Assembly: GCA_963783865.1 (NCBI GenBank)
Contig: CAWAPD010000002.1
Location: forward strand, 198,415 to 262,414
Direction: 5' to 3'
Source: an uncultured Actinomycetes bacterium
GTDB taxonomy: Bacteria; Actinomycetota; Thermoleophilia; UBA2241
DNA length: 64,000 bases
Shown here: piece after piece, positions 37,571-63,947 of the stretch
Layout of the letters: each line of letters starts with the position of its first letter
How positions within the stretch are numbered: position 1 is the stretch's first letter
Notes under the pieces: model-generated
The model's input: only the letters and a program-made list of their open reading frames with translations
Databases searched by the model: none
What the model was told of the DNA's origin: nothing
Program-made: the position numbers and the translations under genes

Positions 37571-39352
37571 TCACCGGTCCACGTCGCCCATGACGAAGTC
37601 GAGGCTCCCGAGGATCGTCACCAGGTCGGGGATCTCGAGCCCCCGGCACAGCAGCGGCAGCACCTGCACGTGGGGGAACGACGGCGTGCGGATGCGCGTG
37701 CGGTAGGCGCTCACGCCGCCGTCGCTGACGCAGTAGTACGCGGTGATCCCCTTGCTCCCCTCGATGGGCACCGCCGCCTCGCCGGCCGGGATCACCGGGC
37801 CCCAGCTCACGCCCAGGAAGTGGTCGATCAGCGTCTCGATGTCGTGCATCGTGCGCGGCTCCTTGAGCGGCGGCGTGGTCAGCGCGTGCTCGGCCTTGTA
37901 CGGCCCCGCCGGCATCTGCTCGACGCACTGCTCGATGATGCGCAGGCTCTGGCGCATCTCCTCGACGTGCACCGCCATGCGGTCGTAGCTGTCGCCGGTC
38001 GAGCCGGTCGGCACCTCGAAGTCGAACCACTCGTAGCCGCTGTAGGGCCGCTGCTTGCGCAGGTCCCACTCCAGGCCGGCGGCGCGCAGGACCGGGCCGG
38101 TAAGACCCCACTCGACGGCGTCGCCCTCGCTCACGGCGCCGACGCCGACCATGCGGCTGCGCACGACCCCGTTGCGCATGACCAGCCGGTCGTACTCGTC
38201 GAGCCGCGGCGGCAGCGCCCGCAGCACGTCGCGCACCAGGTCGCGCCAGCCGTCGGGCAGGTCCTGCTGCACGCCGCCGATGCGGAACCAGTTGGGGTGC
38301 ATGCGGCCGCCGGTGATCGGGCCGATGATGTTGTCGAAGATCTGCTCCCTGTCCTCGAACGTGTAGAAGACCGGCGACAGCGCGCCGATGTCCTGCGCCA
38401 GGGTGCCGTAGAAGACGAGGTGGCTGGCGAGGCGGAACGCCTCGCACAGCATGACCCGGATCACCTTGGCGCGGTCGGGCACCTCGATGCCGGCCAGCCG
38501 CTCGACGCTGCTGACGTAGGCGAGGTTGTTGATCACCCCGCTCAGGTAGTCGATGCGGTCGGTGTACGGGATGAACGTGTGCCACGTCTGGCGTTCGGCC
38601 ATCTTCTCGGCGCCGCGGTGGTGGTAGCCGATGTCGGGCACGCAGCTGACGATCTCCTCGTCGTGCAGGCCGACGATCACCCGGAACGGGCCGTGCGTGG
38701 CGCCGTGCTGGGGGCCGATGTTGAGGTACATGACGTGCGGGTCCTCGTCGGAGGTCGGGAGCCCCCACTCCTCGGGCCGGAAGCGAAGCTGGTCCTGCCA
38801 CTCCTCGGCCCGCTCCGGGGGCATCTCGAAGGGCAGCAGCTCCGTGCCGCGCGACGGCGACTCCTTGCGCAGCGGGTGCCCCTCCCACCACGGCGGCATG
38901 AGGATCCGCTTGAGGTTCGGGTGGCCCTCGACGGCGACGCCGAACATGTCCCAGAGCTCACGTTCGTACCAGGCGGCGGCCGGCCAGAGGTCGACGATCG
39001 AGTCGACCGCCGGCCGGCCGCCGCCGAGGGCGACCTTGAGCCGCACGTCGGCGTTGCGCTCGTAGGAGGTCAGCACGTAGAAGACGGTGAAGTCGGCGTC
39101 CGGCTGGCCCTCGCGGTGACGCCGCAGCCGCTCGTCGATGCCCCCCAGGTCGAACAGCGTGCGGAACGGCTGCGGCGCCTCGAGCTTGAGGTAGCGCAAG
39201 ACGTCACGCACGCGCTCGCGCGGCACCCACGCGGTGGGCATGGCGTCGGCCGTCGGCTGCCAGACGAGCTCGAGGTCGGGGAACGCCGCCGCCAGCTCGC
39301 GCTCGACGGGCGGCGTGGCCTGCTGCGTGGCGGGAGCGCCGGCGCCGGCCAT
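37571..39352 (-). CDS. nuoCD: Fused NADH-quinone oxidoreductase subunits C and D
   Basis: Single uninterrupted 593-aa ORF: N-terminal 30-kDa (NuoC) part, C-terminal 49-kDa (NuoD) part (…[12 protein letters not shown]…). Confidence 0.9.
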
Positions 39353-39353
39353 C

Positions 39354-40010
39354 TCAGGCCTCGCTCTCCGGTCGCAGGAAGGTCTCGCGCTGGCGCAGCG
39401 ACCGCTTCAGGTCGCGCAGCGACACGGGCATCGCCTGGTCGACCCGCTGGGCACCCACGGTCCAGCTCGCCGGACGCCGCTCGGCGCCGACCTTCGACCG
39501 CAGCAGGAGGAGGCCCTCCATGAACGAGGTCGGCGACGGTGGACACCCCTGCACGTAGACGTCGACCGGCAGGAACGAGTCGACCCCCTGGACGACGCTG
39601 TAGACGTCGTACATGCCGCCCGAGTTGGCACAGGAGCCCATCGAGATCACCCAGCGCGGCTCCATCATCTGGTCGTAGAGGCGCTGGATCACCGGCGCCA
39701 TCTTCTGGAAGACGGTGCCGGCGACGATCATCACGTCGGCCTCGCGCGGCGAGCTGCGCAGCACCTCGGCGCCGAAGCGCGCGATGTCGTAGCGCGGCGT
39801 GAGGCTGGTCGCCATCTCCACGAAGCAGCAGGACAGCCCGAAGCCGAACGGCCACAGCGAGTTCTTGCGGCCCCAGGCGAGCAGCGACTCGAGCCCGGCG
39901 AGGGCGACGGGCGACGGCGGGCCCCCGGGCCCGCCGCCCGCTTCTTCGGTCGCGAGCCTGGCGAGCGCCTCCACTGTGCGAGACGGATGGTCGGCGCGGC
40001 GCGGTCTCAT
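39354..40010 (-). CDS. nuoB: NADH-quinone oxidoreductase subunit B (N2 cluster)
   Basis: …[14 protein letters not shown]…, …[12 protein letters not shown]…, …GCPP…; ATG overlaps stop of upstream CopC-CopD gene (ATGA). Confidence 0.9.
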
Positions 40011-41410
40011 TCGCCACCTCCGGAGGCGGACCCCGCTGGCGGCGACGGCGCCCCGGCGGCCGCCCGGGCAGCCACAGGCTGCGGGACGGCGGCCGCCGTC
40101 CTCGCCGTCGCCTGAGCCGCCTTCGGCGCCTTGGCCGGCGCCGACCCGCTCAGGACTGCCGTCACGGCGAGGATCGCGGCCGCGACGGCGATCTCGGCCA
40201 CCACGCTCTGGCGCAGCGGCCGCACGTCACCGCGGCGCCGCACGGCCGGCACCGAGCGGTAGCGGCTCAGGGCGCCGAGCCCCACGATGACGAGCACGAG
40301 CGCGAGCTTGAGCAGCAGCAGCCGGCCGTAGCGCGTGCCGGTCAGCGCCGAGAGCGAGCCGACCTCGACGGCGGCCCGCGCCAGACCGGTCACGATCACG
40401 GCGGCGAGGGCCGCACCGGCCATGGTCGAGAAGCGCGAGACCACCTTCGCGCGCTCGTCGCCGGTGGACCCCCGGATCGCGAGGAGCAGCCATGGCAGAC
40501 CCCCGACCCAGCAGCCGACGGCGAGCAGGTGCACCCACTGCGCGGTCAGGTTGACGAGGCGCGCGGCCGACGGCGCGTCGGCGTGACCGGCGACGACGTG
40601 GGCAAGCATGCCCAGGGCGCCGGTCACGCCGACGGCCAGCAGCCCCCAGCGCCCGGCGCCCAGCTCGAGCGACAGCACGGCGACGCCGCTCAGCAGGACC
40701 AGGGCTCCCAGAGTCACGAGGTTGCGCCCCTCCGCGGTGTCGAACAGCGGCAGCAGGGAGGCCGCCCGGATGAGGGCCTTGTCGGCGTACATCATCACCA
40801 CGACGCCGGCGATCGCCACCAGCCAGGCGGAGCGCAGCAGCACCCGCCCACCCACGGGCAGCTCGCCGCGCAGCGCCACCCAGCAGACCGCGGCCGCCCC
40901 GACCAGCAGCGCCAGGCCGCAGAAGATCAGCCAGCGCCCGACGTCCGAGGCAACCGACACGCCGGCCGAGCCCGGCGAGGGTGGAGCGACGATCACCGGC
41001 GGTGCCGGCACCCGCACCCCGAACGTGAACACGCCGGCTTCGGGGTGCCCGTCAACAGAGATGTTCTGCCAGCTCACCGTGTAGCCGCCCACGGGCAGGG
41101 TCCACCGCAACGGCACCTCGAGCGACAGCGGGTCGCCCGGCGCGCCGATCGCGGCGCCGGCCCCGGCGACGGGTGCGCCGGAGGGCCCGAGGAGCTGCGC
41201 GCTCGAGTGGGTGACGTCGATCGGCTCGGCGAACGTGAGCACGATCACGGCGGGCGACTTCTGGACGGTCGAGCCCGGTGCAGGGGTCGCACCGGTCAGG
41301 TAGGCATGGGCCCATGCCGGACAGGCCGTCAGCCCGAGGACCGCCGCGCAGACGACGACCGCGGCGACCGCCCCGATGCTCCGATGTACGACGCTCCTCG
41401 CTCTCATCAC
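40007..41410 (-). CDS. CopC-CopD fusion copper protein (YcnJ-like): periplasmic CopC cupredoxin-like domain + 8-TM CopD domain
   Basis: Signal peptide ending …AWA|HAYL (His1 Cu site of CopC), …[23 protein letters not shown]… CopC core, CopD region with conserved His (…[15 protein letters not shown]…); GTG/ATG start 4 nt after caa3 subunit I/III stop. Confidence 0.8.
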
Positions 41411-51696: not shown

Positions 51697-54321
51697 CTAG
51701 TCGCGCTCCGGATAGCCGGCCAGCGACCCCCGGACCCCCGCCCAGATGGCCTCGTTCAGAACCTCCTCGTTGGCCTCGTCGGGCCCCGAGAAGTCCAAGC
51801 GGGCGCACTCGCGTGCAAGCTTGGAGTCGGACGTGATCCTCGGATAGCCGCGGTCGCCGAAGGCCGTGACCTTGGGCGTGAGCGCCGCGTACGGCGTCAG
51901 GTCCGGCGTGGAGCTGAAGGCGTCCCACATCGGCGTCGCGCGCTGGTCGAAGATGCTCATCGGCGAGAGCCCCAGCAACTGCTCCATCGTCGCCAGCATC
52001 GCCGCCGTGTCGTAGTGGGTCGAATCGATCGTCGCGTGCTGGGTGTAGGGACTGATCACGAAACACGGCGAGCGGTGCGAGTCGACGTGGTCGGGTCCGT
52101 CCTGGGCGTCGTCCTCGACGACGAAGATGGCGGTGCTGGCCCAGTACTTGCTGTGCGACACGACATCGACGAGGCGTCCCAGCGCGAGGTCGTTGTCGGC
52201 CATGAACGACTCCGGCGTGGCGTCGCCCGGCGTCATCCCCTCCGTGTGGTCCATCGGCAGGTAGACGATCTCCAGGCCGGGAAGGTCGCCGTTCTTCTCG
52301 AACTGGCGGAACTCCCGCTGCCACTCGGGCTCGCGCACCTTGTGGTCCGGCGCCGACATGTCCCAGCCCACGTAGCGGGGATCGACGTGCACGCCGAACC
52401 GTGCCTGCAGGTGCGTCAGGTCGGAGTACCAGACCGTCTTGCCGTGCACCGTCTTCGAGGCCGTCGACTCGCCGTAGTCGCGATAGGTCACGTTATGGGC
52501 GGCGGCATCGTCCCAGAGGTACCCGACCGTAGCCGCCGCCACCGACCGCGGCACTGTCGTGTCCTCGGCCAGCGGCTCGCTCTTGAACTGCTGCTCGAGG
52601 GGCACGAACTCGCTGTCGTAGCTGCGCGAGTACGCCCACGCATAGTCGAACGGCCAGATCTTGTCGGTGTAATCGGTGGAGATGGCTTGCGTCGTCCATG
52701 GATGGCCGTCCTGCGACACCTCGGAGTCGACGTAGAAGTCGTCGAAGAGCACGAACTTGCTGGCCAGGGAACGATGGTTGGGGCTGCTCGACTGCTTGAA
52801 GAGCGTGAGGTCCGCGTCGCCGTTGCCCTCACCGAGGTCGCCGAAGACCTGGTCGTAGGTTCGGTTCTCCTTGATCACGTAGATCACATGCTTGATCGCG
52901 TCGAGCGCGGCGGGTTTCGCCCCCGCCGACCCGGTGGCGTGGTCGTTCACCTTCACCTGGGCCGACCAGCCGGCGAGCGAGTCCTGGGTCACCGTCCCCG
53001 GCAGGTCGATGACCTCGAGCGAGCCCTTCACCATCGTGCCGCTGTACTGCGACTCCGGGAGCGGCGGCGTGTACCAGTCGCCGGGATAGTAGTAGTAGGG
53101 CGCGGTGGGAGCTGGGCTCGGATACAGCGACTTTGGGACGAATGGGCCGGCGGGATTGGGGCCGGGGCCCGACCCGTACGTGTTGGTGACCACGAGCTGC
53201 GTGCCGTCGGGCGTGACCTGGATGCTCGACGGATACCATCCGGTCGGGATGAAGCCGAGGACCGTCCGGTTCTCGACGTCGACCACCGCGATCGCGTTCT
53301 CACCGGCGTCGGTGACGTAGAGGAGGTCCCCGTCTGGACTCACGGCGAGACCCACCGGGGTCGAACCCTTGGGTCCCCCCGGCACCAGCGCGACGTCGAT
53401 GGTCGCCGCGACCGCGTCGGTCTGCGTGTCGATCACCGAGACCGTGTCGCTGTTGGCGTTGGCGACGTAGACCTCGTCACGCTTCGGGTTGCTCGCGATC
53501 CCGGTGGGGTGGTCGGCGGTGAGCGGCGAGGCGTGCGGCGAGAGGACGATGGTCGCCACCGTCTTCTGTCTCGCGGTGTCGATGACCGACACGCGCCGGC
53601 CGGCCCAGTTCGTGACGTACGCCTTGTCGCCCTGGCGGTCGAAGGCGACGGCGAGGGGATAGCGGGCGCGGCCCAGCCCGATCCTCGCCGTCACCTTGTT
53701 CGTCGCCGGGTCGATCACGCTGACGACGTGGCCGGGCTGGTCCTCGTAGTCGTAGTCGGGGTTGGACAAGGCGCCGAGGTTCTCGGCCACATACACTCGC
53801 TCGCCGCGCGGCGTCTGGCCGCAGGCCAGACCCGACGGGAAGTACGGCGCCTTGATCTCCGCCACCGGCTTGAGGCCGCCGGCCGACGTGACCTTGTAGG
53901 CGTGGACCACCTGCTGGCCGGCGCCCGACGCCCACGCCTGCTTGCCATCGGCCGAGAAGACGACGCCGTAGAAGACCGACTCCCCCTGGTAGCCGTTGTA
54001 CTTCTCGAGGGCGGTGCGATCGCCGGTCGTGACGTCGTACACCTCGGTCGTCTCGTACTTCACGGCGGCGCCGCTCGACGTGACGAGCGCGTAGCGGCCG
54101 TCGGGCGAGAGCGCGACGCCCCACGGCCCCGGCAACCCGGCCTTGCCGGGCGGCACGGTGATCACCTTGCCGGCCGGCGTCAGCTCCCAGCCGGACGGCG
54201 TGATGGGGTTGGTGATCGACGCCGCCAGGGTCAGAGACGATCCGCCTCTCGACCCGCAGCCCCCAACGACGATCGCCGCCAGCATGGCGATCCCGGCCAC
54301 GATCCTTGCGGTAGTGCGCAT
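51697..54321 (-). CDS. Lipoprotein: N-terminal YVTN-type beta-propeller fused to C-terminal phosphoesterase (PF04185-like phospholipase C / acid phosphatase) domain
   Basis: Lipobox IVVGGCGS; repeated …YVTN…/…YVAN…/…YVTD… blades; C-terminal …IYVIKENRTYDQVFGDL… phosphoesterase signature; start at internal ATG (MRTTARIVAG…). Confidence 0.75.
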   Translation of the reverse strand: MRTTARIVAGIAMLAAIVVGGCGSRGGSSLTLAASITNPITPSGWELTPAGKVITVPPGKAGLPGPWGVALSPDGRYALVTSSGAAVKYETTEVYDVTTGDRTALEKYNGYQGESVFYGVVFSADGKQAWASGAGQQVVHAYKVTSAGGLKPVAEIKAPYFPSGLACGQTPRGERVYVAENLGALSNPDYDYEDQPGHVVSVIDPATNKVTARIGLGRARYPLAVAFDRQGDKAYVTNWAGRRVSVIDTARQKTVATIVLSPHASPLTADHPTGIASNPKRDEVYVANANSDTVSVIDTQTDAVAATIDVALVPGGPKGSTPVGLAVSPDGDLLYVTDAGENAIAVVDVENRTVLGFIPTGWYPSSIQVTPDGTQLVVTNTYGSGPGPNPAGPFVPKSLYPSPAPTAPYYYYPGDWYTPPLPESQYSGTMVKGSLEVIDLPGTVTQDSLAGWSAQVKVNDHATGSAGAKPAALDAIKHVIYVIKENRTYDQVFGDLGEGNGDADLTLFKQSSSPNHRSLASKFVLFDDFYVDSEVSQDGHPWTTQAISTDYTDKIWPFDYAWAYSRSYDSEFVPLEQQFKSEPLAEDTTVPRSVAAATVGYLWDDAAAHNVTYRDYGESTASKTVHGKTVWYSDLTHLQARFGVHVDPRYVGWDMSAPDHKVREPEWQREFRQFEKNGDLPGLEIVYLPMDHTEGMTPGDATPESFMADNDLALGRLVDVVSHSKYWASTAIFVVEDDAQDGPDHVDSHRSPCFVISPYTQHATIDSTHYDTAAMLATMEQLLGLSPMSIFDQRATPMWDAFSSTPDLTPYAALTPKVTAFGDRGYPRITSDSKLARECARLDFSGPDEANEEVLNEAIWAGVRGSLAGYPERD

Positions 54322-54543
54322 GGCTTCCCCCTCGAGTCCTGCCACAAGAGATGGACTCACCAACAAGACACCCCAGCGGAGGTCGCGTCAACATCGGAAA
54401 AGATGCGAGGCGGTAGCTTGACCGACCGGTGGGCGGGCCGCGGCCATACGGCCGCGCCCCGCGTGTGGATCCGACCCGCGCTCCCGTCCCGGGTTCGCGC
54501 AACGCAGGGTCGTCGCTTACCATTGCGAAAGTACGGGAACAGA

Positions 54544-55884: not shown

Positions 55885-57105
55885 CTAGCGCGACGCCGTG
55901 GGTGAAGCCGACGGCGTCGCCGTGGGCGCGGCCGAGTCGGTCGGCGTGGGCGACGGCGTAGGCGTGGCCGACGGGCTCGGCGACTCCGTGGGCGTCGGGG
56001 TGATGGTCGGCTCGCCGTAGGGGCCTGTCGCCGTCGGCGAGGGGGTCGGGCTGGCGCTGCCGTCGCCCGCCGACGGGCTCGGCGACGGGTCGGCGGTCGG
56101 CGAGGTCGAGGCCTTGGGACTGTGGGTGGGCGACGCCGAGGGGGCGGCCCCTCGGGCCGCCGGGCTCGGCGTCGTTCCTCGCGCCGAGCCACCGACGCCG
56201 ACCGCGCCGGTGACGGTCCGCGTGGCGGCTGCCGCGGCATGGGGTATGGGCCGGTGAGTATCGACCCGCTTCTCGACCGCCGACCCGACGTTGATCGCTG
56301 TGGCCGCCGCCAGTACGACGGCGGCCAACTTCGCGACTTGCGTCGCCCCGATGGCCGATCCGATCCCGCCCAGCGCCCCGCCCAGCGGCAGCAGGGGCGC
56401 GGCGATCGGCGAAGGCACGGCGGGAACGGGCGGCGGCAGGTGCAGGCCCGGCGGCAGCGGCACATGCGGCAGCGCACGCAGGGCGGCGAGGGCTGCCATC
56501 GCCGACGGCGCCGGCAGCCCCTCCGCCCGGCAGAGCTCGCGGTAGCGGCTACGGAAGGCGTTGCGCGAGCGCGCCAGCAGGACCTCGGCCGAGCCGGGCG
56601 TGAGGTCGAGCGTGGCGGCGACCTCGACGAGGCTCAAGCCGTGCACGTCCTTGAGCAGGAGCGCCAGGCGCTGGCGGCGCGTGAGGCCGCGCAGGGCGGC
56701 CGCGAAGAGGCGGCCCTGCGCGGCCCGCTCGAACGGGTCGTCGGGCGCGACGGCGTCGTCGCGGTGGTCCGCGCCGACGACCGCGCGACGCTTGGCGGCG
56801 CGGAAGTGGTCGTAGCAGCGGTTGACGGTCAGCCGGTAGAGCCAGGGGCGCAGCATGACCTCGCGCTGGCGCGGCACGCGCTCGAAGGCGCGGATCAGCA
56901 CGTCGTGGGTGATGTCCTCGGCGTCCTCACCGCGGCGCACGAGGTGCAGGGCGACGTTGTAGATGCCGCCCGCGTAGTGTCGGTGCAGGACGGCGAACGC
57001 GTCGGGCGACCCCCGCCGGAGGCCCTCGACGAGCCGGGCCTCGCCCTGTTCGTCCAGGGCTTCCGCGCCACCGGCGCGTGACCCTGTCGTGGCCACCGTC
57101 CCCAT
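55885..57105 (-). CDS. ECF (group 4) sigma factor fused to a single TM helix and a long Pro/Thr/Ser-rich extracytoplasmic tail
   Basis: σ2 (…DITHDVLIRAFERVP…WLYRLTVNRCYD…) and σ4 (…LTRRQRLALLLKDVHGLSLVEVAATLDLTPGSAEVLLARSRNAF…) regions, then TM (VAKLAAVVLAAATAINVGSAV), then ~150 aa SPTPSPTAT low-complexity. Confidence 0.8.
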   Translation of the reverse strand: MGTVATTGSRAGGAEALDEQGEARLVEGLRRGSPDAFAVLHRHYAGGIYNVALHLVRRGEDAEDITHDVLIRAFERVPRQREVMLRPWLYRLTVNRCYDHFRAAKRRAVVGADHRDDAVAPDDPFERAAQGRLFAAALRGLTRRQRLALLLKDVHGLSLVEVAATLDLTPGSAEVLLARSRNAFRSRYRELCRAEGLPAPSAMAALAALRALPHVPLPPGLHLPPPVPAVPSPIAAPLLPLGGALGGIGSAIGATQVAKLAAVVLAAATAINVGSAVEKRVDTHRPIPHAAAAATRTVTGAVGVGGSARGTTPSPAARGAAPSASPTHSPKASTSPTADPSPSPSAGDGSASPTPSPTATGPYGEPTITPTPTESPSPSATPTPSPTPTDSAAPTATPSASPTASR

Positions 57106-57284: not shown

Positions 57285-57995
57285 ATGAGGAAGGTCATCG
57301 TCTTCATCGTCGCAGCGCTCGTCGCCCTGGCCGTCTGCGCGCCGGCCATGGCATCGTCGAGCGCGATCACCTGGTGGCATCCACCGACATCGTTCACCGT
57401 CGCAGGCAAGGTCCAGGCGGTCGACACGACCAACAGCAGACTCGTCCTGCGCGTGCAGCTCGCCTCGCTGTCGGCCAAGCAGTATCTCGGCGAAGACATG
57501 ACCGTCGTGGTCGCGCCTGACGCCCAGCTGCTCAAGGCCAAGGGCGTGGGCTTCGTCAAGATCGCCCTCGCGGACATCGCCCCCGACGACCACGTGCGCG
57601 TGATGGGCACGGTCGACCGTTCGGGTGTGGGCGGACCCACCTACACCGCCGAGCGCGTCATCATGCGCCATCTGGTGCCGCCGGAGGGGATCAAGTTCTT
57701 CGCCTTCCGCGGGCGGGTGGTCTCGGTGGACGCGGCCGGCAGCAAGCTCGTCGCCCACCTGCACCTGGTCACGCGGGCGCTGTGGCAGGCGCTCGAGACC
57801 GACTTCGGCTTCACCGTCGGCCCGAAGGCACGCATCGTGCAGTGGGTCGACGGCGCGCCGGTCGTGATCACCCTGGCCGACGTGGCCGCCGGCGACACCG
57901 TGCTGGCCAAGGGTCACATCGACCGGACCGATCCAGCCAACCCGGTCTTCATCATCCACTGGATGAGGGTCTGGAAGGCGGCGCCGACGCTGTAG
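57285..57995 (+). CDS. Secreted protein with two tandem ~90-aa beta-rich repeats (internal duplication)
   Basis: Signal peptide MRKVIVFIVAALVALAVCAPAMA; repeat 1 FTVAGKVQAVD…RVMGTVDRSG, repeat 2 FAFRGRVVSVD…LAKGHIDRTD. Confidence 0.65.
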   Translation: MRKVIVFIVAALVALAVCAPAMASSSAITWWHPPTSFTVAGKVQAVDTTNSRLVLRVQLASLSAKQYLGEDMTVVVAPDAQLLKAKGVGFVKIALADIAPDDHVRVMGTVDRSGVGGPTYTAERVIMRHLVPPEGIKFFAFRGRVVSVDAAGSKLVAHLHLVTRALWQALETDFGFTVGPKARIVQWVDGAPVVITLADVAAGDTVLAKGHIDRTDPANPVFIIHWMRVWKAAPTL

Positions 57996-58304: not shown

Positions 58305-58366
58305 AGCGTGGACTTGGAAGCGTGCGGCGACCGGATCCGCGCTCGGGGAGGGAGGCAGCGAGCCCC

Positions 58367-58639
58367 TTGGATTGGTTCAAGTCCGACAAGACGGAGCATA
58401 CGATCCTCGCGACGGCGTGGGTCGTGCCGGAGCCGAGCCGTTGCGTCCAATGCGGGGTCTGCTCGTTCAACTGCCCGATGGGGATCGACGTGCGCCGGTA
58501 CGTGTGGCGGGGCGAACCGGTGAAGGACCGCCACTGCCTGACCTGCGGCGAGTGCGTGAACCGCTGTCCCCGCAGGCTGCTGGCCTTCGAACCGATCAGG
58601 TCCCCAGGAACCCCCCAGCCGAATGCGACGGTCCTTTAG
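58367..58639 (+). CDS. 2×[4Fe-4S] ferredoxin
   Basis: CVQCGVCSFNCP and CLTCGECVNRCP; start either TTG 58367 (strong RBS GGGGAGGGAGG upstream) or GTG 58322. Confidence 0.8.
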   Translation: MDWFKSDKTEHTILATAWVVPEPSRCVQCGVCSFNCPMGIDVRRYVWRGEPVKDRHCLTCGECVNRCPRRLLAFEPIRSPGTPQPNATVL

Positions 58640-58640
58640 C

Positions 58641-59957
58641 ATGGCTCGACGTCATGTCTTGATCGGCAGCGGGCCGGCCGCCATCGCGGCCGCGGAGACG
58701 ATCCGGAGCCGCGACGATCAGGCCGAGATCGTGATCGTCGGCGCCGAGCCCCACGGGTACTACTCGCGCCCGGGTCTCGCCTACTACCTGGCGAAGGAGG
58801 TGCCCGAGGAAAGGCTCTTTCCCTTCACGCCCCAGGACTTCGCCCGCCTGAACGTCCAGTTGCTCCTCGAACGCGCGGTCCACCTCGACCCCCCCGCGCA
58901 CCGGGTGACCATGGAGGGTGGCCGAGAGCTCCCCTACGATCGCCTGCTGGTCGCCACGGGTTCCAGGGCGATCCCAGCCAAGGTGCCGGGCGCCGACCTG
59001 GACGGCGTGGTCAAGCTCGACGACATGGACGATGCCCGCGATCTGATCCGAAGAAGCCGCCACGCCAAGGCGGCGGTGGTCGTCGGAGGCGGGATCACCG
59101 CCCTCGAGATCGCTGAAGGCCTGAGTGCTCGTCGGGTGCACGTCCACTACTTCATGCGCAAGGGCCGCTACTGGAGCAGCGTCCTCTCGGAGTCCGAATC
59201 GCGCATGATCGAGCAGGGACTTCGCGCTCGCGGCGTGCAGATCCACGACTTCACCGAGCTTGCAGGGATCCTTGGCAGGCAAGGCCGGGTCGTCGGCGTC
59301 GAGACTGGTGACGGCACGCAGATCCCCTGCGATCTCGTGGCCATGGCGCTTGGTGTCCGTCCCCAGAAGGAACTGGCCGACGAGGCCGGGCTCGACTGCG
59401 AGCGCGGGATCCTGGTCAACGAGCACCTGCGTTCGAGTGACGAGCACATCTTCGCGGCGGGCGACATCGCCGAGGTACGCGAGACTCTCACCGACCGGCG
59501 TACCCTCGAGGTGCTGTGGAGCTCGGCCCTGGCCAAAGGCCGCATCGCCGGCCTCAACATGGCCTCGGACTCCACGCACGCCTACGACACGGGCACGCCC
59601 CTCAACGTCACCAGGCTGGCCGGCTTCAAGGTCACGATCATCGGTTCCGTCGGCAGCGGCAAAGACTCCGACCGGCAAAGCCCCGCCCGTGGCGAGAGCG
59701 AGACCTGGGAGGAGCTGGGCGAGGCGGTCGCCGTGGAGTCGCAGAGCGGCGAAACCCACATCCGGCTCGCCCTGGGAGAGAGCACAATAGCGGGCGCCGT
59801 CGTGATGGGAGACCAGGAGATCTCATTCCCCCTTCATGAGATCATCGCGGCGCGCGCCGACGTCAGTGACATCCGGGCGAGCCTTCAGGAGCCGGCGGCT
59901 CCGGTAGCCGAGATCGTGCGGGAGTTCTGGCCGGGATCGAGGACGCGCCTTGTCTAG
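58641..59957 (+). CDS. FAD-dependent pyridine-nucleotide-disulfide-family oxidoreductase (ferredoxin/rubredoxin-reductase or NAD(P)H-nitrite-reductase-like) with Reductase_C dimerisation domain
   Basis: ATG 2 nt after ferredoxin stop; FAD site HVLIGSGPAAIAAA, …YSRPGL…, NAD(P) site VVVGGGITALEIA, …FAAGDIA…. Confidence 0.85.
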   Translation: MARRHVLIGSGPAAIAAAETIRSRDDQAEIVIVGAEPHGYYSRPGLAYYLAKEVPEERLFPFTPQDFARLNVQLLLERAVHLDPPAHRVTMEGGRELPYDRLLVATGSRAIPAKVPGADLDGVVKLDDMDDARDLIRRSRHAKAAVVVGGGITALEIAEGLSARRVHVHYFMRKGRYWSSVLSESESRMIEQGLRARGVQIHDFTELAGILGRQGRVVGVETGDGTQIPCDLVAMALGVRPQKELADEAGLDCERGILVNEHLRSSDEHIFAAGDIAEVRETLTDRRTLEVLWSSALAKGRIAGLNMASDSTHAYDTGTPLNVTRLAGFKVTIIGSVGSGKDSDRQSPARGESETWEELGEAVAVESQSGETHIRLALGESTIAGAVVMGDQEISFPLHEIIAARADVSDIRASLQEPAAPVAEIVREFWPGSRTRLV

Positions 59958-60717
59958 GCGTTCAGGGAAGCGCCGGCACACGTTCGGGGCGGTCCCGGCC
60001 GCAGCAGTCTCCTGGCTCGGGCGATATCGGGAGCTCTGGTACGCGCTCGGGGCGATCGTCGTGGTCACGGCATTCTATCTGCTCGCGTATCGACAGGCGG
60101 GCAGGTTCCCCTCGGCGTCCAGTCTCGCGGGTCACGGGATCGGCATCCTGGGCTTCATCCTCATGCTGATGACCGCGACCCTCTACTCGATCCGCAAGCG
60201 GCTGACCGATGCCCGCTGGGGGAGCATGGCAGCCTGGCTCAGATTCCATATGGTCACGGGGTTGGTCGGCCCCTACATGGTCTTGCTCCACACCAGCATG
60301 CGGTTCCGGGGATTGGCAGGCGTGGCCATGCTCCTGACCGTCGTCGTCGTGATCAGCGGCCTGGTCGGCCGGTACATCTACACCGCCGTGCCCCGCGTCA
60401 TCGAAGGCGCCGAGCCCGACGTCGACCCGCTCGATCACCCGGTTGCGCGATCCGAAGTGTCGTCGATGGCCTCGGCCGATCTGGCGATAGCCCCGGCCGT
60501 CGCCCTGGACCCGTCCCCCATCGGGAGTGGCCAGCCCTGGGGGGCGCAGGCTGCCCCGGCTGGGCGGCGGTCTCTGGACCGGCGTCTTGATCGCCTCGCG
60601 GCGCGGAGGCGGGCGCTAGCGGTCTGGCGTTCCCTCCATCTCCCCCTCACCTGGGCGCTCTTCGTCGCTGCCTTCGTGCACGCGGCCGGGGCCCTCTACT
60701 ACTCGATCGGGCGATAG
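59950..60717 (+). CDS. Polytopic membrane protein (5 TM) with conserved His pairs; candidate b-haem or quinone-interacting membrane anchor
   Basis: TTG start overlapping upstream stop by 8 nt; TMs with …WLRFHMVTGLVGPYMVLLH… and …SLHLPLTWALFVAAFVHAAG…; functional assignment is inference. Confidence 0.6.
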   Translation: MSRRSGKRRHTFGAVPAAAVSWLGRYRELWYALGAIVVVTAFYLLAYRQAGRFPSASSLAGHGIGILGFILMLMTATLYSIRKRLTDARWGSMAAWLRFHMVTGLVGPYMVLLHTSMRFRGLAGVAMLLTVVVVISGLVGRYIYTAVPRVIEGAEPDVDPLDHPVARSEVSSMASADLAIAPAVALDPSPIGSGQPWGAQAAPAGRRSLDRRLDRLAARRRALAVWRSLHLPLTWALFVAAFVHAAGALYYSIGR

Positions 60718-60733
60718 GAGACGTGGTGCGACT

Positions 60734-61534
60734 GTGAAGGATCGACCGCGCTTCCTGTCCGGCATGCGAGTGGTGGCCGCCGTGGTCACCCTCCTGGGCA
60801 TCGGGGTGTGGATCCTGATCCAGGGCCCGGCCCTGTTCAGCCCAGGCCCCCTGAATGCGCAGGCCAAGACCCAGGCGCTGGGAGGTGTCACCAGTCATGC
60901 TCAGCTGGCCGGTCGATGCGGCGCCTGTCACGCCGCTCCCTGGAGCTCCCAGACCATGGCCGACCGCTGCAACGCCTGCCACACAGACGTCAGAACCCAG
61001 ATTCAGGGCCACAGCGGGATCCACGGCGGTCTGGTAGGCGCGATGTCATCCCCCACCTGCGGCGTCTGCCATTCGGAGCACCTCGGACCCAACGGCGCGC
61101 TCACGGCCAACTTCGACCACAACGCCTTCCCGTTCAAGCTGACTGGCGCGCACGCCAGGGTGGCGTGCCAGCTCTGCCACACCACCGCCACGTCCCTCCA
61201 AGACCTGCGCAACACGCCTCAGGACTGCTACTCCTGCCACGCGAACGTCGACAAGCACTCTGGGACCTTCGGGAAGCTGTGCGGGCAGTGCCACAACACG
61301 ACCACCTGGGCCAACGCGAAGTTCGACCACACCGTCTTCCCGCTCAACCACGGCAGCAACCAGCAGACGGCCACGTGCACGACGTGCCATCCGAACGGCT
61401 TCAGCACCTACACATGCCTTGGGTGCCACTTCCACACCCCGGCCCGAGTCCAGTCCGACCACGAGGGGAAGAGCCTCGCCGCGCTGGCTGACTGCATCCA
61501 CTGCCATCCCGGCGGGCGGGGAGCGGGCAACTAG
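60734..61534 (+). CDS. Membrane-anchored multihaem cytochrome c with nine CxxCH motifs
   Basis: GTG start after RBS AGGAG; N-terminal TM anchor; CGACH, CNACH, CGVCH, CQLCH, CYSCH, CGQCH, CTTCH, CLGCH, CIHCH counted directly; recurring FDHxxFP…C..CH paired-haem pattern. Confidence 0.85.
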   Translation: MKDRPRFLSGMRVVAAVVTLLGIGVWILIQGPALFSPGPLNAQAKTQALGGVTSHAQLAGRCGACHAAPWSSQTMADRCNACHTDVRTQIQGHSGIHGGLVGAMSSPTCGVCHSEHLGPNGALTANFDHNAFPFKLTGAHARVACQLCHTTATSLQDLRNTPQDCYSCHANVDKHSGTFGKLCGQCHNTTTWANAKFDHTVFPLNHGSNQQTATCTTCHPNGFSTYTCLGCHFHTPARVQSDHEGKSLAALADCIHCHPGGRGAGN

Positions 61535-61661: not shown

Positions 61662-62669
61662 CTACCTCCGCAGGAACTCCGCCATGGTCGCCGCCCGCGC
61701 GTCGTTCGCCGCGAGCGGCTTGAGCCCCCAGTCCGCCTCGATCGTGTGCAGCAGCGAGTAGTGGTCGTAGGGCCGTGCCGACCGGTACCCGGTCCGCGCC
61801 CCGCTGCCGGCGAAGATCGTGGCCACGTGGTTGTCGGTGTCGCTGCCCTCGTCCCACGTGATCACGAGCAGCGAGGGGGACGAGGTGAACGCGGGCGAGC
61901 CGAGTATCTGCGGCACCTCCTTCGCCAGCCACGCGTCGCCGGTCGAGACCGGGCAGTCGTGCATGTCGCTGCACATGTTGGGAGTGATGAAGGCGAAGTC
62001 GGGCGTAGTCTTCGCCGATTGCAGGTCGGTGGCAAGCTGCGTGAACGGCACGACGTGACTGTCGCGTCGCGCCGCGTTGTCGAGGATGTCGGTGTAGTAG
62101 AGGAACGGGATGTGCTTGACCGCGTAGAGCGAGCCGGCGTTCGAGCTGTAGCCCGGCGATGGCATGCTCTCGCCGTAGAGCTTCCAGGTGCGGCCCGACG
62201 CCTCCATGCGGTCGGCCAGGTTCGCCACGTCCACTGCGTACCCGGCCGTCGGCGGGTTGCGGTCGTCGGTGATTCCCTGCGTGGAACCGCTCGTGAGCGC
62301 GATGTAGTTGGGCAGGCTGGGATGGGTGATCGCCGAGTAGTCGGCGGCCAGCGAGTAATGGGCTGCCAGCCCGTTGATGAACGGTGCCTGCGTGTTGCCG
62401 ATGATCTCGCTCGTCGAGTGGTTCTCCATGACGATCACGAAGATGTGCGCGAGCGGTGGAAGGCCGCCCGTCGTGGCGGCGGAGGACGACGCTGTGGGCG
62501 AGGGCGAGGATGAGGGGATCGGCGTCGACGGCTGAGCCGTCGACGCCGCCCCCGATCCCGATCCGCAGCCCGCCACGGCGAGAAGCGCCAGCAGCGCGGC
62601 CGCGACCCACACGTGCGTCGGGGCCGCGAAGCCGGCGCGGCGCCGGGCGCACGCGAACGTTCTGGTCAT
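61662..62669 (-). CDS. Phosphoesterase-family (PF04185-like acid phosphatase / phospholipase C) lipoprotein
   Basis: Lipobox LLAVAGCGS; …IFVIVMENHSTSEIIG… signature; paralogous to C-terminal domain of the 51697-54321 protein. Confidence 0.75.
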   Translation of the reverse strand: MTRTFACARRRAGFAAPTHVWVAAALLALLAVAGCGSGSGAASTAQPSTPIPSSSPSPTASSSAATTGGLPPLAHIFVIVMENHSTSEIIGNTQAPFINGLAAHYSLAADYSAITHPSLPNYIALTSGSTQGITDDRNPPTAGYAVDVANLADRMEASGRTWKLYGESMPSPGYSSNAGSLYAVKHIPFLYYTDILDNAARRDSHVVPFTQLATDLQSAKTTPDFAFITPNMCSDMHDCPVSTGDAWLAKEVPQILGSPAFTSSPSLLVITWDEGSDTDNHVATIFAGSGARTGYRSARPYDHYSLLHTIEADWGLKPLAANDARAATMAEFLRR

Positions 62670-62756
62670 GACCTCGTCGGGGCTCACGATGGGTCCGACT
62701 TGCCCAGTACGGGCGATGCCCAGACCGTTGGGCCGCCGTGACCGGCCGCCCGCCGT

Positions 62757-63947
62757 CTACTGCGGCTCGGCGACGATCTCCCGCATCTCTGCGTCGATCG
62801 TCACACCCCAGCGCGAGAACTCTTCGAAGAAGCGTTCCGGCGGCACGATCTGCTCGGGGGCGAACACGCCGGGGCCGGCGATCTCGCCCGCGGCCATCAT
62901 CTTGGCGACGATCGCCGGCGGGATGCCGGTGTCGACGTCGCCGCCGCCGGCGCCGTACCGCTTGTTGGCCGGAATGACCGCGCGAACGCGCCACTCGACG
63001 CGCCGCCCGTCCTTGCGGCCGCGCACCACGCCGATCAGGTAGTCGACGTCGTCCATCACCGTGTCGGCCGTCGGCCGCGGGATCCTGCTCGCTGCCGCGA
63101 GCAGGGTATCCCGCGGCCGCATCTTCTGTCCCGCCACCTCGATCTCGTCCTTGCTGGTGAGGCCGATCTTCACCAGGAATCGCATCTGCTCGGTGAACTC
63201 GGCGGGCAGCGAGAGCTTGAACGTGGCGCTGTTCAGGCCCTGGGCACCCCACGTGTGCACGAAGGTGATCGGCTCGGAGTGGATGGTGTGGTGGGCCTCG
63301 AGCATGCCGGCCGGCTGGCCGAAGTCGATGAGCTCGGGACGATCGCCGCCCTTGATGGTCTCATCCCAGGCGCCGTCGATGAACTGCGGGCAGGGCACGC
63401 TGAACTCGTCGCACAGCGTCTCGAGCGAGTACGGCGGCACCCAGCCCTCGTAGGCGCTCCAGTCGGTGTGGTCGACGTTGCCGCAGAGGGCGTGCGCCTC
63501 CTCGATCGTGTCGAGCCGTGAGGCGCCGTACGCCGCCAGGATGTTGGTCACGCCGGGGGCCCCGCCCATGCAGATGACCGCCGTCACGCCGGCCTTCTTG
63601 AACTCGTCGTCGAGGCTGAGCTGCTGCTTCGAGATGTGGAAGAGCCCGCCGAGGTCGGTGTAGTGGACCCCGGCCGCCGCCGCGGCGTGCATCACGTCGA
63701 TGTTCCAGAAGTGCTGCGTGCAGTTGATCATCGCGTCGCAGCCGGCGATGACGCCCTTCACGCTCTCCTGGTCGCGGGCGTCGACGAAGGCGGCGACGGC
63801 CTTGCCGCCGCCTTGGGCGGCAGCCACCGCCGCCGCCTGCTGCTCCGAGTAGTCGGCGACGACGATCGCCTCGACTTCGGGGCTGATGCCGAGCTCCTGC
63901 ACCGCCCACCTGCCCATCGCTCCGGCTCCGACGACGGCGATCTTCAT
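62757..63947 (-). CDS. Saccharopine dehydrogenase-family NAD(P) oxidoreductase
   Basis: MKIAVVGAGAMGRW… Rossmann N-terminus, 396 aa. Confidence 0.75.
   Translation of the reverse strand: MKIAVVGAGAMGRWAVQELGISPEVEAIVVADYSEQQAAAVAAAQGGGKAVAAFVDARDQESVKGVIAGCDAMINCTQHFWNIDVMHAAAAAGVHYTDLGGLFHISKQQLSLDDEFKKAGVTAVICMGGAPGVTNILAAYGASRLDTIEEAHALCGNVDHTDWSAYEGWVPPYSLETLCDEFSVPCPQFIDGAWDETIKGGDRPELIDFGQPAGMLEAHHTIHSEPITFVHTWGAQGLNSATFKLSLPAEFTEQMRFLVKIGLTSKDEIEVAGQKMRPRDTLLAAASRIPRPTADTVMDDVDYLIGVVRGRKDGRRVEWRVRAVIPANKRYGAGGGDVDTGIPPAIVAKMMAAGEIAGPGVFAPEQIVPPERFFEEFSRWGVTIDAEMREIVAEPQ

Follow-up and report, generated by a model that had tools for sequence, protein, structure and literature searches.

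A four-gene cassette encoding a ferredoxin, a flavoprotein, a predicted diheme cytochrome b and a nonaheme cytochrome c in an uncultured Actinomycetes bacterium: a candidate route for electron export from NAD(P)H

Organization of the cassette

The stretch of DNA analyzed here (the window) comprises 64,000 nucleotides from an uncultured Actinomycetes bacterium (assembly GCA_963783865.1, contig CAWAPD010000002.1, positions 198,415 to 262,414). It contains an open reading frame (ORF) at 60734-61534 that encodes a cytochrome c with nine heme-binding motifs. A first-pass annotation, made from the sequence of the window, had described this protein by itself. The main point, which that annotation did not mention, is that conserved redox partners are encoded directly upstream. 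Genes for a ferredoxin, a flavoprotein, a membrane protein and the cytochrome lie on one strand, overlapping or 16 nt apart, with the cytochrome gene last. The four products may together carry electrons from cytoplasmic NAD(P)H across the membrane. The genes are the following.

58322..58639, plus strand: small cytoplasmic 2x[4Fe-4S] ferredoxin, 105 residues counted from the first start codon; Pfam Fer4_9/Fer4_10 and related families, two canonical CxxCxxCxxxCP motifs
58623..59957, plus strand: FAD/NAD(P)H oxidoreductase, 444 residues (438 in the public gene call); Pyr_redox_2, E 2.9e-51
59950..60717, plus strand: inner-membrane protein with five helices, predicted diheme cytochrome b, 255 residues; conservation, AlphaFold2 (AF2) model and motifs
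60734..61534, plus strand: nonaheme cytochrome c, 266 residues, GTG start; translation, motif script, Pfam and homologue alignment

No porin gene or extracellular multiheme cytochrome (MHC) was found among the neighboring genes of the window. A hydrogenase or formate dehydrogenase near the cassette was likewise absent from the window and from most of the other loci described below. Scans for promoters, terminators and Rfam elements around the operon gave nothing useful.

The nonaheme cytochrome

The start codon of the cytochrome ORF is backed by an AGGAG sequence ~12 nt upstream and by homologues with a matching N terminus. Within the ORF, the following features were delimited.

60764..60823, plus strand: N-terminal signal-anchor helix, residues ~11-30, with a conserved LFSPG.LNA segment behind it; hydrophobic in the translation, helix 10-30 in the AF2 model
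60881..61090, plus strand: heme module 1, hemes 1-3 (C62, C79, C109) with invariant H55, M75, H97 and H116; Cytochrom_c3_2 match at residues 55-116
61091..61309, plus strand: heme module 2, a c7-like unit, hemes 4-6 (C145, C165, C183) with invariant H129, H140 and H175; Cytochrome_C7 match at residues 144-219
61310..61534, plus strand: heme module 3, hemes 7-9 (C215, C228, C254) with invariant H199, H206, H234 and H243; motifs and alignment

A recount by script confirmed that the 266-residue ORF holds exactly nine CxxCH motifs, at residues 62, 79, 109, 145, 165, 183, 215, 228 and 254. All 18 cysteines lie inside these motifs, and the script found no CxxxCH or CxxxxCH variants in the ORF. The six-frame translation of the entire window contains 12 CxxCH motifs, of which 9 belong to the cytochrome. 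Over the whole protein there is one heme per 29.6 residues, a lower density than the one per ~27 residues given by the first-pass annotation. The two segments that it had called near-identical share 9 of 25 residues, and self-BLAST detected no significant internal repeat; common to both are A-x-F-D-H-x-x-F-P and a CxxCH motif 16 residues further on.

Conservation was scored in an alignment with 44 nine-heme homologues of 55-92% identity. All nine CxxCH motifs are invariant, and the motifs are therefore not chance occurrences. The cytochrome has 21 histidines, among them the 9 proximal ones and 10 others that are invariant (55, 97, 116, 129, 140, 175, 199, 206, 234 and 243). Met75 is invariant as well and is the sole invariant methionine for His-Met ligation. 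With these ten additional histidines and Met75, the supply of axial ligands would suffice for nine six-coordinate hemes, and the protein appears to have no open catalytic heme.

The predicted membrane anchoring was borne out by a single hydrophobic helix at residues ~10-30. Behind it, F35, S36, G38 and L40 are invariant or nearly so, and neither a lipobox cysteine nor an A-x-A site could be read from the sequence near the helix. Because the helix and the following segment are conserved and these processing sites are lacking, the N terminus is most simply read as an uncleaved membrane anchor. The ORF thus encodes a real, membrane-anchored nine-heme cytochrome c.

Family relationships of the cytochrome

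In profile searches, which the first-pass annotation had proposed as a check, the whole cytochrome passed the curated gathering cutoffs of Cytochrome_C7 (PF14522; 39.2 bits, cutoff 24.8) and of Cytochrom_c3_2 (PF14537; 38.3 bits, cutoff 25). The score for Mtrc-MtrF_II-IV_dom was 18.9 bits, under the cutoff of 30. NCBIfam has no model for the cytochrome or for the five-helix membrane protein; NCBI names one close homologue "cytochrome c3 family protein". Searches of the PDB with the cytochrome sequence and profile gave chance matches at E≤1, with no recognizable solved structure and no match to the Thermincola OcwA-type or MtrC-type surface cytochromes. For the NapC/NirT/NrfH/CymA group, the profile comparison with NrfH (2j7a_C) yielded E 0.28 over 40 residues, and no Pfam or NCBIfam match was obtained. 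In hhalign, hemes 4-6 aligned weakly with the three hemes of PpcA (E 1e-3, probability 21%; PpcA sequence entered by hand). Structure prediction was run as well; the AF2 model was too poor to use (predicted local distance difference test, pLDDT, 57), and Foldseek against the PDB returned 0 matches. The cytochrome is thus a multiheme electron-transfer protein built of c7/c3-type units, as the label "Geobacter/Shewanella-type heme wire" implied, but the specific wire family behind that label was not recovered.

Among the 120 best cytochrome homologues, proteins with 9 hemes (44 proteins) and 12 hemes (63 proteins) predominate; the others have 15, 16 or 18. The N- and C-terminal modules are retained among the relatives, the C-terminal module 3 in the 9- to 18-heme relatives examined, and additional units are inserted between them. 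The window protein represents the minimal form of a modular family, and the stepwise growth of the heme number in threes between fixed terminal modules fits a wire of adjustable length.

Multiheme cytochromes with a comparable build are known from Geobacter. CbcL combines a diheme b domain with nine c hemes, and the GSU1996 family consists of repeated triheme c7 units; CbcL/CbcBA and GSU1996-type proteins are quinol oxidases or soluble periplasmic proteins of diderms. Like the GSU1996-type polymers, the cassette cytochromes grow by triheme units (9, 12, 15, 18 hemes). The window cytochrome differs from them in having no recognizable similarity to the solved members and a single invariant methionine for His-Met ligation. 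The periplasmic PCC3 cytochromes with 21, 24 or 27 hemes that are described in the Gallionellaceae pangenome follow the same three-fold series.

The upstream redox proteins

The first-pass annotation had named a well-known cytochrome family with a defined enzymatic partner encoded nearby as evidence that would speak against its reading. Partners are indeed defined and lie directly upstream, but the system that they form is neither well known nor characterized. The ferredoxin has 90 instead of 105 residues if the alternative start at 58367 of the public gene call is used, and its PDB matches are polyferredoxin-type subunits. The flavoprotein gene overlaps both the ferredoxin stop and the start of the membrane-protein gene. 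PadH is the best NCBIfam match of its product. In the PDB the top match is 8c0z_E (E 7.5e-36), which serves as FAD/NAD subunit in a tungsten aldehyde oxidoreductase; NADH oxidases and the reductases of putidaredoxin and rubredoxin come next. To judge by these matches, each of the nearest relatives is a module connecting NAD(P)(H) with Fe-S carriers, and flavoprotein and ferredoxin together resemble the NAD-linked electron-transfer modules AorC and PadH/PadF. In the flavoprotein, the GGGITA dinucleotide fold leads into a conserved HYF(M/L)R that lacks an acidic residue, a feature that leans weakly toward NADPH as the electron donor.

A predicted diheme cytochrome b in the membrane

The AF2 model of the membrane protein (pLDDT 76) has helices at residues 27-48, 54-84, 93-115, 120-146 and 204-254, and hydropathy agrees on five. 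Helix 3 carries W96x3H100x13H114, helix 4 S136GxxG140 and helix 5 W226x3H230x13H244. A conserved H62 lies on the outer face, and residues ~150-215 form a variable cytoplasmic loop. In alignments of 66-120 relatives, H62, W96, H100, H114, S136, G137, G140, W226, H230 and H244, among others, are invariant. Apart from H62, the invariant histidines thus make up one HX13H pair on each of helices 3 and 5, an arrangement also found in the domains of NADPH oxidases (NOX) and ferric reductases. From the positive-inside rule, the N terminus, loop 2 and the long loop 4 are predicted to face the cytoplasm. The most strongly conserved charged residues (R82, K83, R141, R149 and R220) are on this predicted cytoplasmic face, and such an invariant basic surface would suit ferredoxin docking.

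The affiliation of the protein with described families is faint. Against PF01292 (Ni_hydr_CYTB/cytochrome b561) it scored 18.3 bits, under the cutoff of 30.1, and its scores for PF01794 and DUF4405 were below the curated cutoffs too. Among 66 relatives, weak matches to PF01292 were seen in 61 (best E 1.3e-8), to PF01794 in 29 (best E 1.5e-4) and to DUF4405 in 27; most relatives are without any Pfam domain assignment. Sequence and profile searches of the PDB gave no meaningful match, and Foldseek with the model against the PDB returned chance coiled-coil matches, with STEAP1/2 at E about 5. The family itself is large: an exhaustive profile search collected 3,620 clusters (50% identity) at E≤1e-3 and 1,895 at E≤1e-10.

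Occurrence of the cassette in other genomes

With tblastn searches using the four window proteins, the same gene order was found in metagenome-assembled genomes (MAGs) labelled Actinomycetes, Actinomycetota, Eubacteriales and Anaerolineales, and also in two long contigs (L021 and L022). In addition, 80 metagenome loci were fetched by the membrane protein alone, and the genes around it were counted wherever the contig extended far enough.

Flavoprotein gene upstream: 34 of 35 loci with at least 1400 bp upstream
Ferredoxin gene upstream: 27 of 27 loci with at least 1800 bp upstream
Gene with at least three CxxCH motifs next downstream: 36 of 43 loci with at least 900 bp downstream

Full-length neighbor cytochromes have 6 to 39 hemes, mostly in multiples of three; smaller numbers, down to 3, belong to genes truncated where a contig stops. 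All four genes are kept in shuffled order at two loci (L088 and L093), and at a third (L097) ferredoxin, membrane protein and cytochrome are present, with no flavoprotein gene detected on its short contig. The binding motifs for the cofactors, the gene order, its conservation and the co-occurrence of the parts are thus matters of direct observation.

This distribution also bears on the first-pass view that a multiheme cytochrome is unexpected in such an organism. The description of the core respiration as aerobic and actinobacterial is reasonable, with complex I and QcrB encoded in the window, a GC content of 70.8% and the nearest relatives of the cassette in MAGs labelled Actinomycetes or Actinomycetota. 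The element of surprise is weakened, since the cassette occurs in several high-GC MAGs bearing these labels and in hundreds of metagenome contigs.

On the 2.67-Mb contig L021 (1-5664), an Mbh/Ech-like set of genes (Proton_antipo_M, NADHdh, Complex1_30kDa/49kDa), together with an ArsR-type regulator, immediately precedes a 12-heme version of the cassette.

Exchange of the NAD(P)H-flavin-Fe-S module

The strongest functional clue is that the cytoplasmic module can be replaced by unrelated proteins. Seven loci (five of Acidobacteriota type, one Eisenbacteria and one Lewinellaceae) encode a single protein of 453-456 residues that combines a transmembrane (TM) helix, 2x[4Fe-4S] and a Pyr_redox_3/2 FAD/NAD(P) domain. 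In six of the seven, this TM-anchored ferredoxin-flavoprotein fusion lies beside a detected membrane-protein homologue, and in the loci looked at in detail it is close to 29- to 39-heme cytochromes. The alphaproteobacterial locus L016 has yet another version, a membrane-anchored protein of 676 residues that has two FNR-like domains (FAD_binding_6 and NAD_binding_1) and, at its C terminus, a [2Fe-2S] domain. Next come the membrane protein, with both HX13H pairs retained, and a seven-heme c7-type cytochrome. These are thus three unrelated solutions to one arrangement, in which an NAD(P)H-flavin-Fe-S module is combined with a diheme b membrane protein and a multiheme cytochrome c.

Three Acidobacteriota-type loci (L009 572-8570, L013 12417-21093 and L018 10391-19301) contain 29- to 39-heme cytochromes, the five-helix membrane protein and the TM-anchored fusion. 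They also hold an AMIN-domain protein or another large secreted protein.

A possible route for electron export

Taken together, the four proteins of the operon may constitute a transmembrane chain that exports electrons from NAD(P)H to the outside, possibly bypassing quinones; we consider the case for and against this reading to be evenly balanced. In the four-protein complex that we infer, cytoplasmic NAD(P)H would reduce the FAD of the 444-residue flavoprotein, and electrons would pass from there via the two [4Fe-4S] clusters of the ferredoxin to the inner heme b of the membrane protein. They would cross the membrane from the inner to the outer heme b of the five-helix protein and enter the nine low-spin c hemes, which would be anchored alongside on the outer side of the cytoplasmic membrane. 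The electrons could end on Fe(III), on organic matter of a humic or quinone-like kind, or on another carrier. Export would bypass the menaquinone pool or run alongside it, and the chain could serve as an electron sink for redox balancing or as a reductase of extracellular substrates (including for iron acquisition) when the aerobic chain stalls. Electron movement from the N side to the P side of the membrane is favored by the membrane potential and consumes it, as in diheme succinate:menaquinone reductases. Because outward flow consumes the potential, a role as sink or reductase would be expected rather than an energy-conserving one, and proton-pumping respiration is unlikely for this system.

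A broader proposition, which we put forward tentatively and with somewhat less than even confidence, is that the cassette acts as a quinone-independent NAD(P)H:extracellular-acceptor oxidoreductase. It would be a bacterial counterpart of NADPH oxidase and ferric reductase with a tunable heme wire (up to 39 hemes in the neighbor cytochromes), common in soil Actinomycetota, Chloroflexota and Firmicutes. At the Acidobacteriota-type loci, the membrane protein stands beside other flavo-Fe-S modules and next to giant cytochromes; PCC3-like conduits of diderms would then likewise be wired directly to cytoplasmic pyridine nucleotides, and not to the quinone pool as assumed.

A number of points weigh against electron export from NAD(P)H. 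The family has so far been described from sequence data. The AF2 model of the cytochrome is poor and its fold searches against the PDB found nothing. Seven of the 43 loci with sufficient downstream sequence showed no adjacent cytochrome gene, and at one of these (L037) the gene seems to be there in frameshifted form; the cytochrome is therefore not obligatory for the other three proteins. The membrane protein possibly has a quinone site, as He et al. 2017 proposed. Nine hemes span ~8-9 nm when fully extended, which is too short for the actinobacterial wall, and a further outward route beyond the cytochrome would be needed. Finally, direct transfer from NAD(P)H to the outside wastes energy and is unusual in a respiratory pathway.

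The cytochrome-less loci are mostly lower in GC and have a membrane protein with a longer loop between helices 4 and 5 (L052, L083, L100, L101 and L102). Where upstream sequence is present (L083 and L100), the flavoprotein gene is still there despite the missing adjacent multiheme cytochrome. At these loci the outer heme b may pass electrons straight to an acceptor, or to a partner whose gene lies elsewhere.

Weighing of alternative functions

The alternative that survives best is a quinol-linked conduit, in which the five-helix protein would be a quinone-active cytochrome b, functionally like CbcL, CymA and ImcH, and would connect the menaquinone pool with the nonaheme cytochrome in either direction. 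Flavoprotein and ferredoxin would then either deliver electrons to the quinone site, which would make the system an NAD(P)H:menaquinone reductase of a new kind, or have a different function. A quinone-active cytochrome b is what He et al. 2017 (PMC5566968) proposed for the membrane-protein family. The weak similarity to PF01292, the family of the quinone-reactive cytochrome b of hydrogenase and formate dehydrogenase, points the same way, but the window protein itself falls below the cutoff of that family, and no quinone-site motif was identified in it. The window organism does have a quinone-based chain (complex I, QcrB), and a route through quinones would conserve more energy. What the explanation leaves unaccounted for is the NAD(P)H-type flavo-Fe-S module, which in three unrelated kinds stands almost always beside the membrane protein. 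We therefore rate a quinol-linked conduit as unlikely, while taking it seriously.

Electron uptake is a second alternative. The cytochrome would oxidize an outside donor (Fe(II), reduced humics or a partner cell), and the inward electrons would reduce NAD(P)+ or ferredoxin. The cluster type was first catalogued in Fe(II)-oxidizing bacteria, including Gallionella, Leptothrix and R. palustris TIE-1, and multiheme chains are in principle reversible. Energetics argue against it. Flow from Fe(II) or humics to NAD(P)+ is uphill in redox potential, these donors having the higher potential, and it would run against the membrane potential besides, so that it would be uphill twice; the cassette encodes no coupling device for such a reaction. 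Since outward flow is aided by the membrane potential, export is favored over uptake, which we regard as very improbable.

That the cytochrome is an ordinary soluble c3-type carrier, a periplasmic-type shuttle that serves some hydrogenase, formate dehydrogenase or reductase from another part of the genome and has unrelated genes as neighbors, is scarcely credible: the NCBI name of the close homologue, the Pfam c3/c7 matches and the Mbh/Ech-like set in front of the L021 cassette would agree with it, but it conflicts with the near-universal synteny with the three upstream genes, with a conserved N-terminal helix and following segment that indicate an anchor and not a cleaved signal peptide, and with the absence of hydrogenase and formate dehydrogenase genes near most cassettes.

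Comparison with described systems

The closest published counterparts were described by He et al. 2017 (PMC5566968). The inner-membrane protein of their PCC3/PCC4 clusters has five helices, of which the third and fifth carry WX3HX13H and the fourth SGxxG; it was compared with the ferric-reductase domain and proposed to be a quinone-active cytochrome b. Table S6 of that paper lists porin-less clusters of MHC, inner-membrane protein and redox protein in Gallionella ES-2, Leptothrix cholodnii SP-6, Dechloromonas agitata, R. palustris TIE-1 and Bradyrhizobium, which were judged unlikely to take part in extracellular transfer for want of a porin. In the first three, the MHC has 247-288 residues and 8-10 hemes, the membrane protein 192 residues and the redox protein 412-425 residues. 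The window membrane protein has all of the diagnostic motifs and adjoins an MHC and redox proteins, likewise without a porin, and the gene sizes in Table S6 match both cassette types found here, a comparison of gene lengths alone and not of sequences. The clusters differ in that theirs come from Proteobacteria or Chlorobium and the one in the window from an actinobacterial-looking high-GC genome, and in that their redox protein was not identified in the paper. The window cassette would thus be an actinobacterial member of a widespread cluster type that was catalogued in 2017 and has been described from genomic data. What is new here is evidence that points to a direct link of this cluster type to cytoplasmic NAD(P)H.

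The functional logic of the ferric-reductase domain (FRD) superfamily (PF01794), with NADPH oxidases, ferric reductases and MsrQ-like proteins, is the same: cytosolic NAD(P)H, a flavin, two b hemes bound by HX13H pairs of the third and fifth helices, and an extracytosolic acceptor or carrier. However, these proteins have six helices and the window protein five, and a minority of its relatives match PF01794, weakly. In the FRD superfamily an FNR-like NAD(P)H domain is usually fused or paired, whereas the window has a separate Pyr_redox_2 protein and a 2x[4Fe-4S] ferredoxin; an FNR-like partner occurs in the distant locus L016. The outer carrier or acceptor is a flavinylated protein, O2 or Fe(III) in the superfamily and a multiheme cytochrome c here. 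NAD(P)H-linked MsrQ-like systems with flavinylated outer carriers were predicted in Actinobacteria by Meheust et al. 2021.

Two further complexes have a similar layout. The Hmc and Tmc complexes of sulfate reducers comprise an outer c3-family multiheme cytochrome, a membrane cytochrome b and a cytoplasmic Fe-S protein that are encoded together, and the cassette shares this co-encoded set. They have no NAD(P)H flavoprotein, and the usual direction of flow is inward from periplasmic H2 or formate oxidation; their subunits belong to other families, and no sequence relationship was detected. Type B succinate:menaquinone reductase consists of a flavoprotein, an Fe-S protein and a five-helix diheme cytochrome b, through which electrons move from the cytoplasmic to the outer face, aided by the membrane potential. 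It differs from the cassette in its unrelated protein families, its distribution of histidine ligands and its endpoint, where a quinone takes the place of the cytochrome c.

For single-membrane bacteria, most knowledge of extracellular electron transfer comes from the Thermincola cytochromes and the flavin-based system of Listeria. A literature search found no paper on an operon of ferredoxin, flavoprotein, cytochrome b and MHC in monoderms, or on the partnership of this ferredoxin and flavoprotein. A 2026 preprint on peat covers the porin-cytochrome clusters of Acidobacteriota and Verrucomicrobiota only and does not mention the inner-membrane module.

The question bears on how uncultured aerobic soil Actinomycetota cope with anoxia. 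If electron export from NAD(P)H is correct, a four-gene module leading to a heme wire would let these organisms dispose of electrons on iron or humic substances. The little-understood PCC3-type conduits would gain an inner-membrane entry point that can be tested, and bioelectrochemical engineering a compact part that is easily transferred. If, instead, the membrane protein is a quinol oxidase, the cassette would be a fairly ordinary variant of the CbcL/CymA-like modules.

Base composition and neighboring genes

The GC content of the cassette is 68.1%, compared with 70.9% in the rest of the window and 70.8% in the window overall, and its GC content at third codon positions (GC3) is 0.85-0.88 against about 0.92-0.98 in most neighbors. 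The comparison of GC and codon usage suggested in the first-pass annotation thus shows a cassette slightly lower in both measures, and these small offsets lend weak support to a recent horizontal transfer into this genome. At the Anaerolineales locus, the cassette has 56.7% GC and its flanks 51.0%. The ferredoxin and flavoprotein of the MAG labelled Eubacteriales are 71% and 63% identical to those of the window. These data hint at lateral spread of the cassette; MAG labels are too unreliable for a firm claim.

The window is 99.6% identical to a metagenome contig of 528 kb from ENA (L019). Two substitutions separate the four cassette genes from their counterparts there, neither of them in the cytochrome gene. 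On the minus strand at 61662-63947, the window has separate ORFs for a phosphoesterase (341 residues) and a saccharopine dehydrogenase (396 residues), which form one gene of 761 residues in the ENA contig. Single-base indels at 62519 and 62816 explain the difference, so that a frameshift error at these genes is probable in one assembly or the other.

Upstream of the cassette, an extracytoplasmic function (ECF)-type sigma factor (Sigma70_r2 and r4_2) is encoded at 55885-57105 on the minus strand, divergent from the cassette region. Its C-terminal extension of ~220 residues contains a hydrophobic stretch and a tail rich in Pro, Ser, Thr and Ala. Sigma homologues lie within a few kb at L002 and L016, and at L101 and L102, where the membrane-protein gene has no cytochrome gene beside it, the next genes encode an ECF sigma factor and an anti-sigma factor containing DUF5666/DUF5667 domains. 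The sigma factor near the cassette may indicate a regulatory link. Between the sigma factor gene and the cassette, a predicted secreted protein of 236 residues (57285-57995, plus strand) has a faint TOBE-like similarity as its sole family match; it was rejected as a cassette member because it is absent from the other cassette loci.

Two phosphoesterase genes are found in this part of the window. One encodes a protein of 889 residues (51697-54366, minus strand) with beta-propeller repeats (NHL/lactonase-like) and a phospholipase C-like phosphoesterase domain; the second, at 61662-62687, is the one adjoining the saccharopine dehydrogenase gene. Farther upstream, the complex I genes comprise a NuoB-like gene (39354-40010) and a fused NuoC/D gene (37571-39352). 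A CopC-CopD fusion of 467 residues (40007-41410, minus strand) is encoded directly upstream of them on the same strand.

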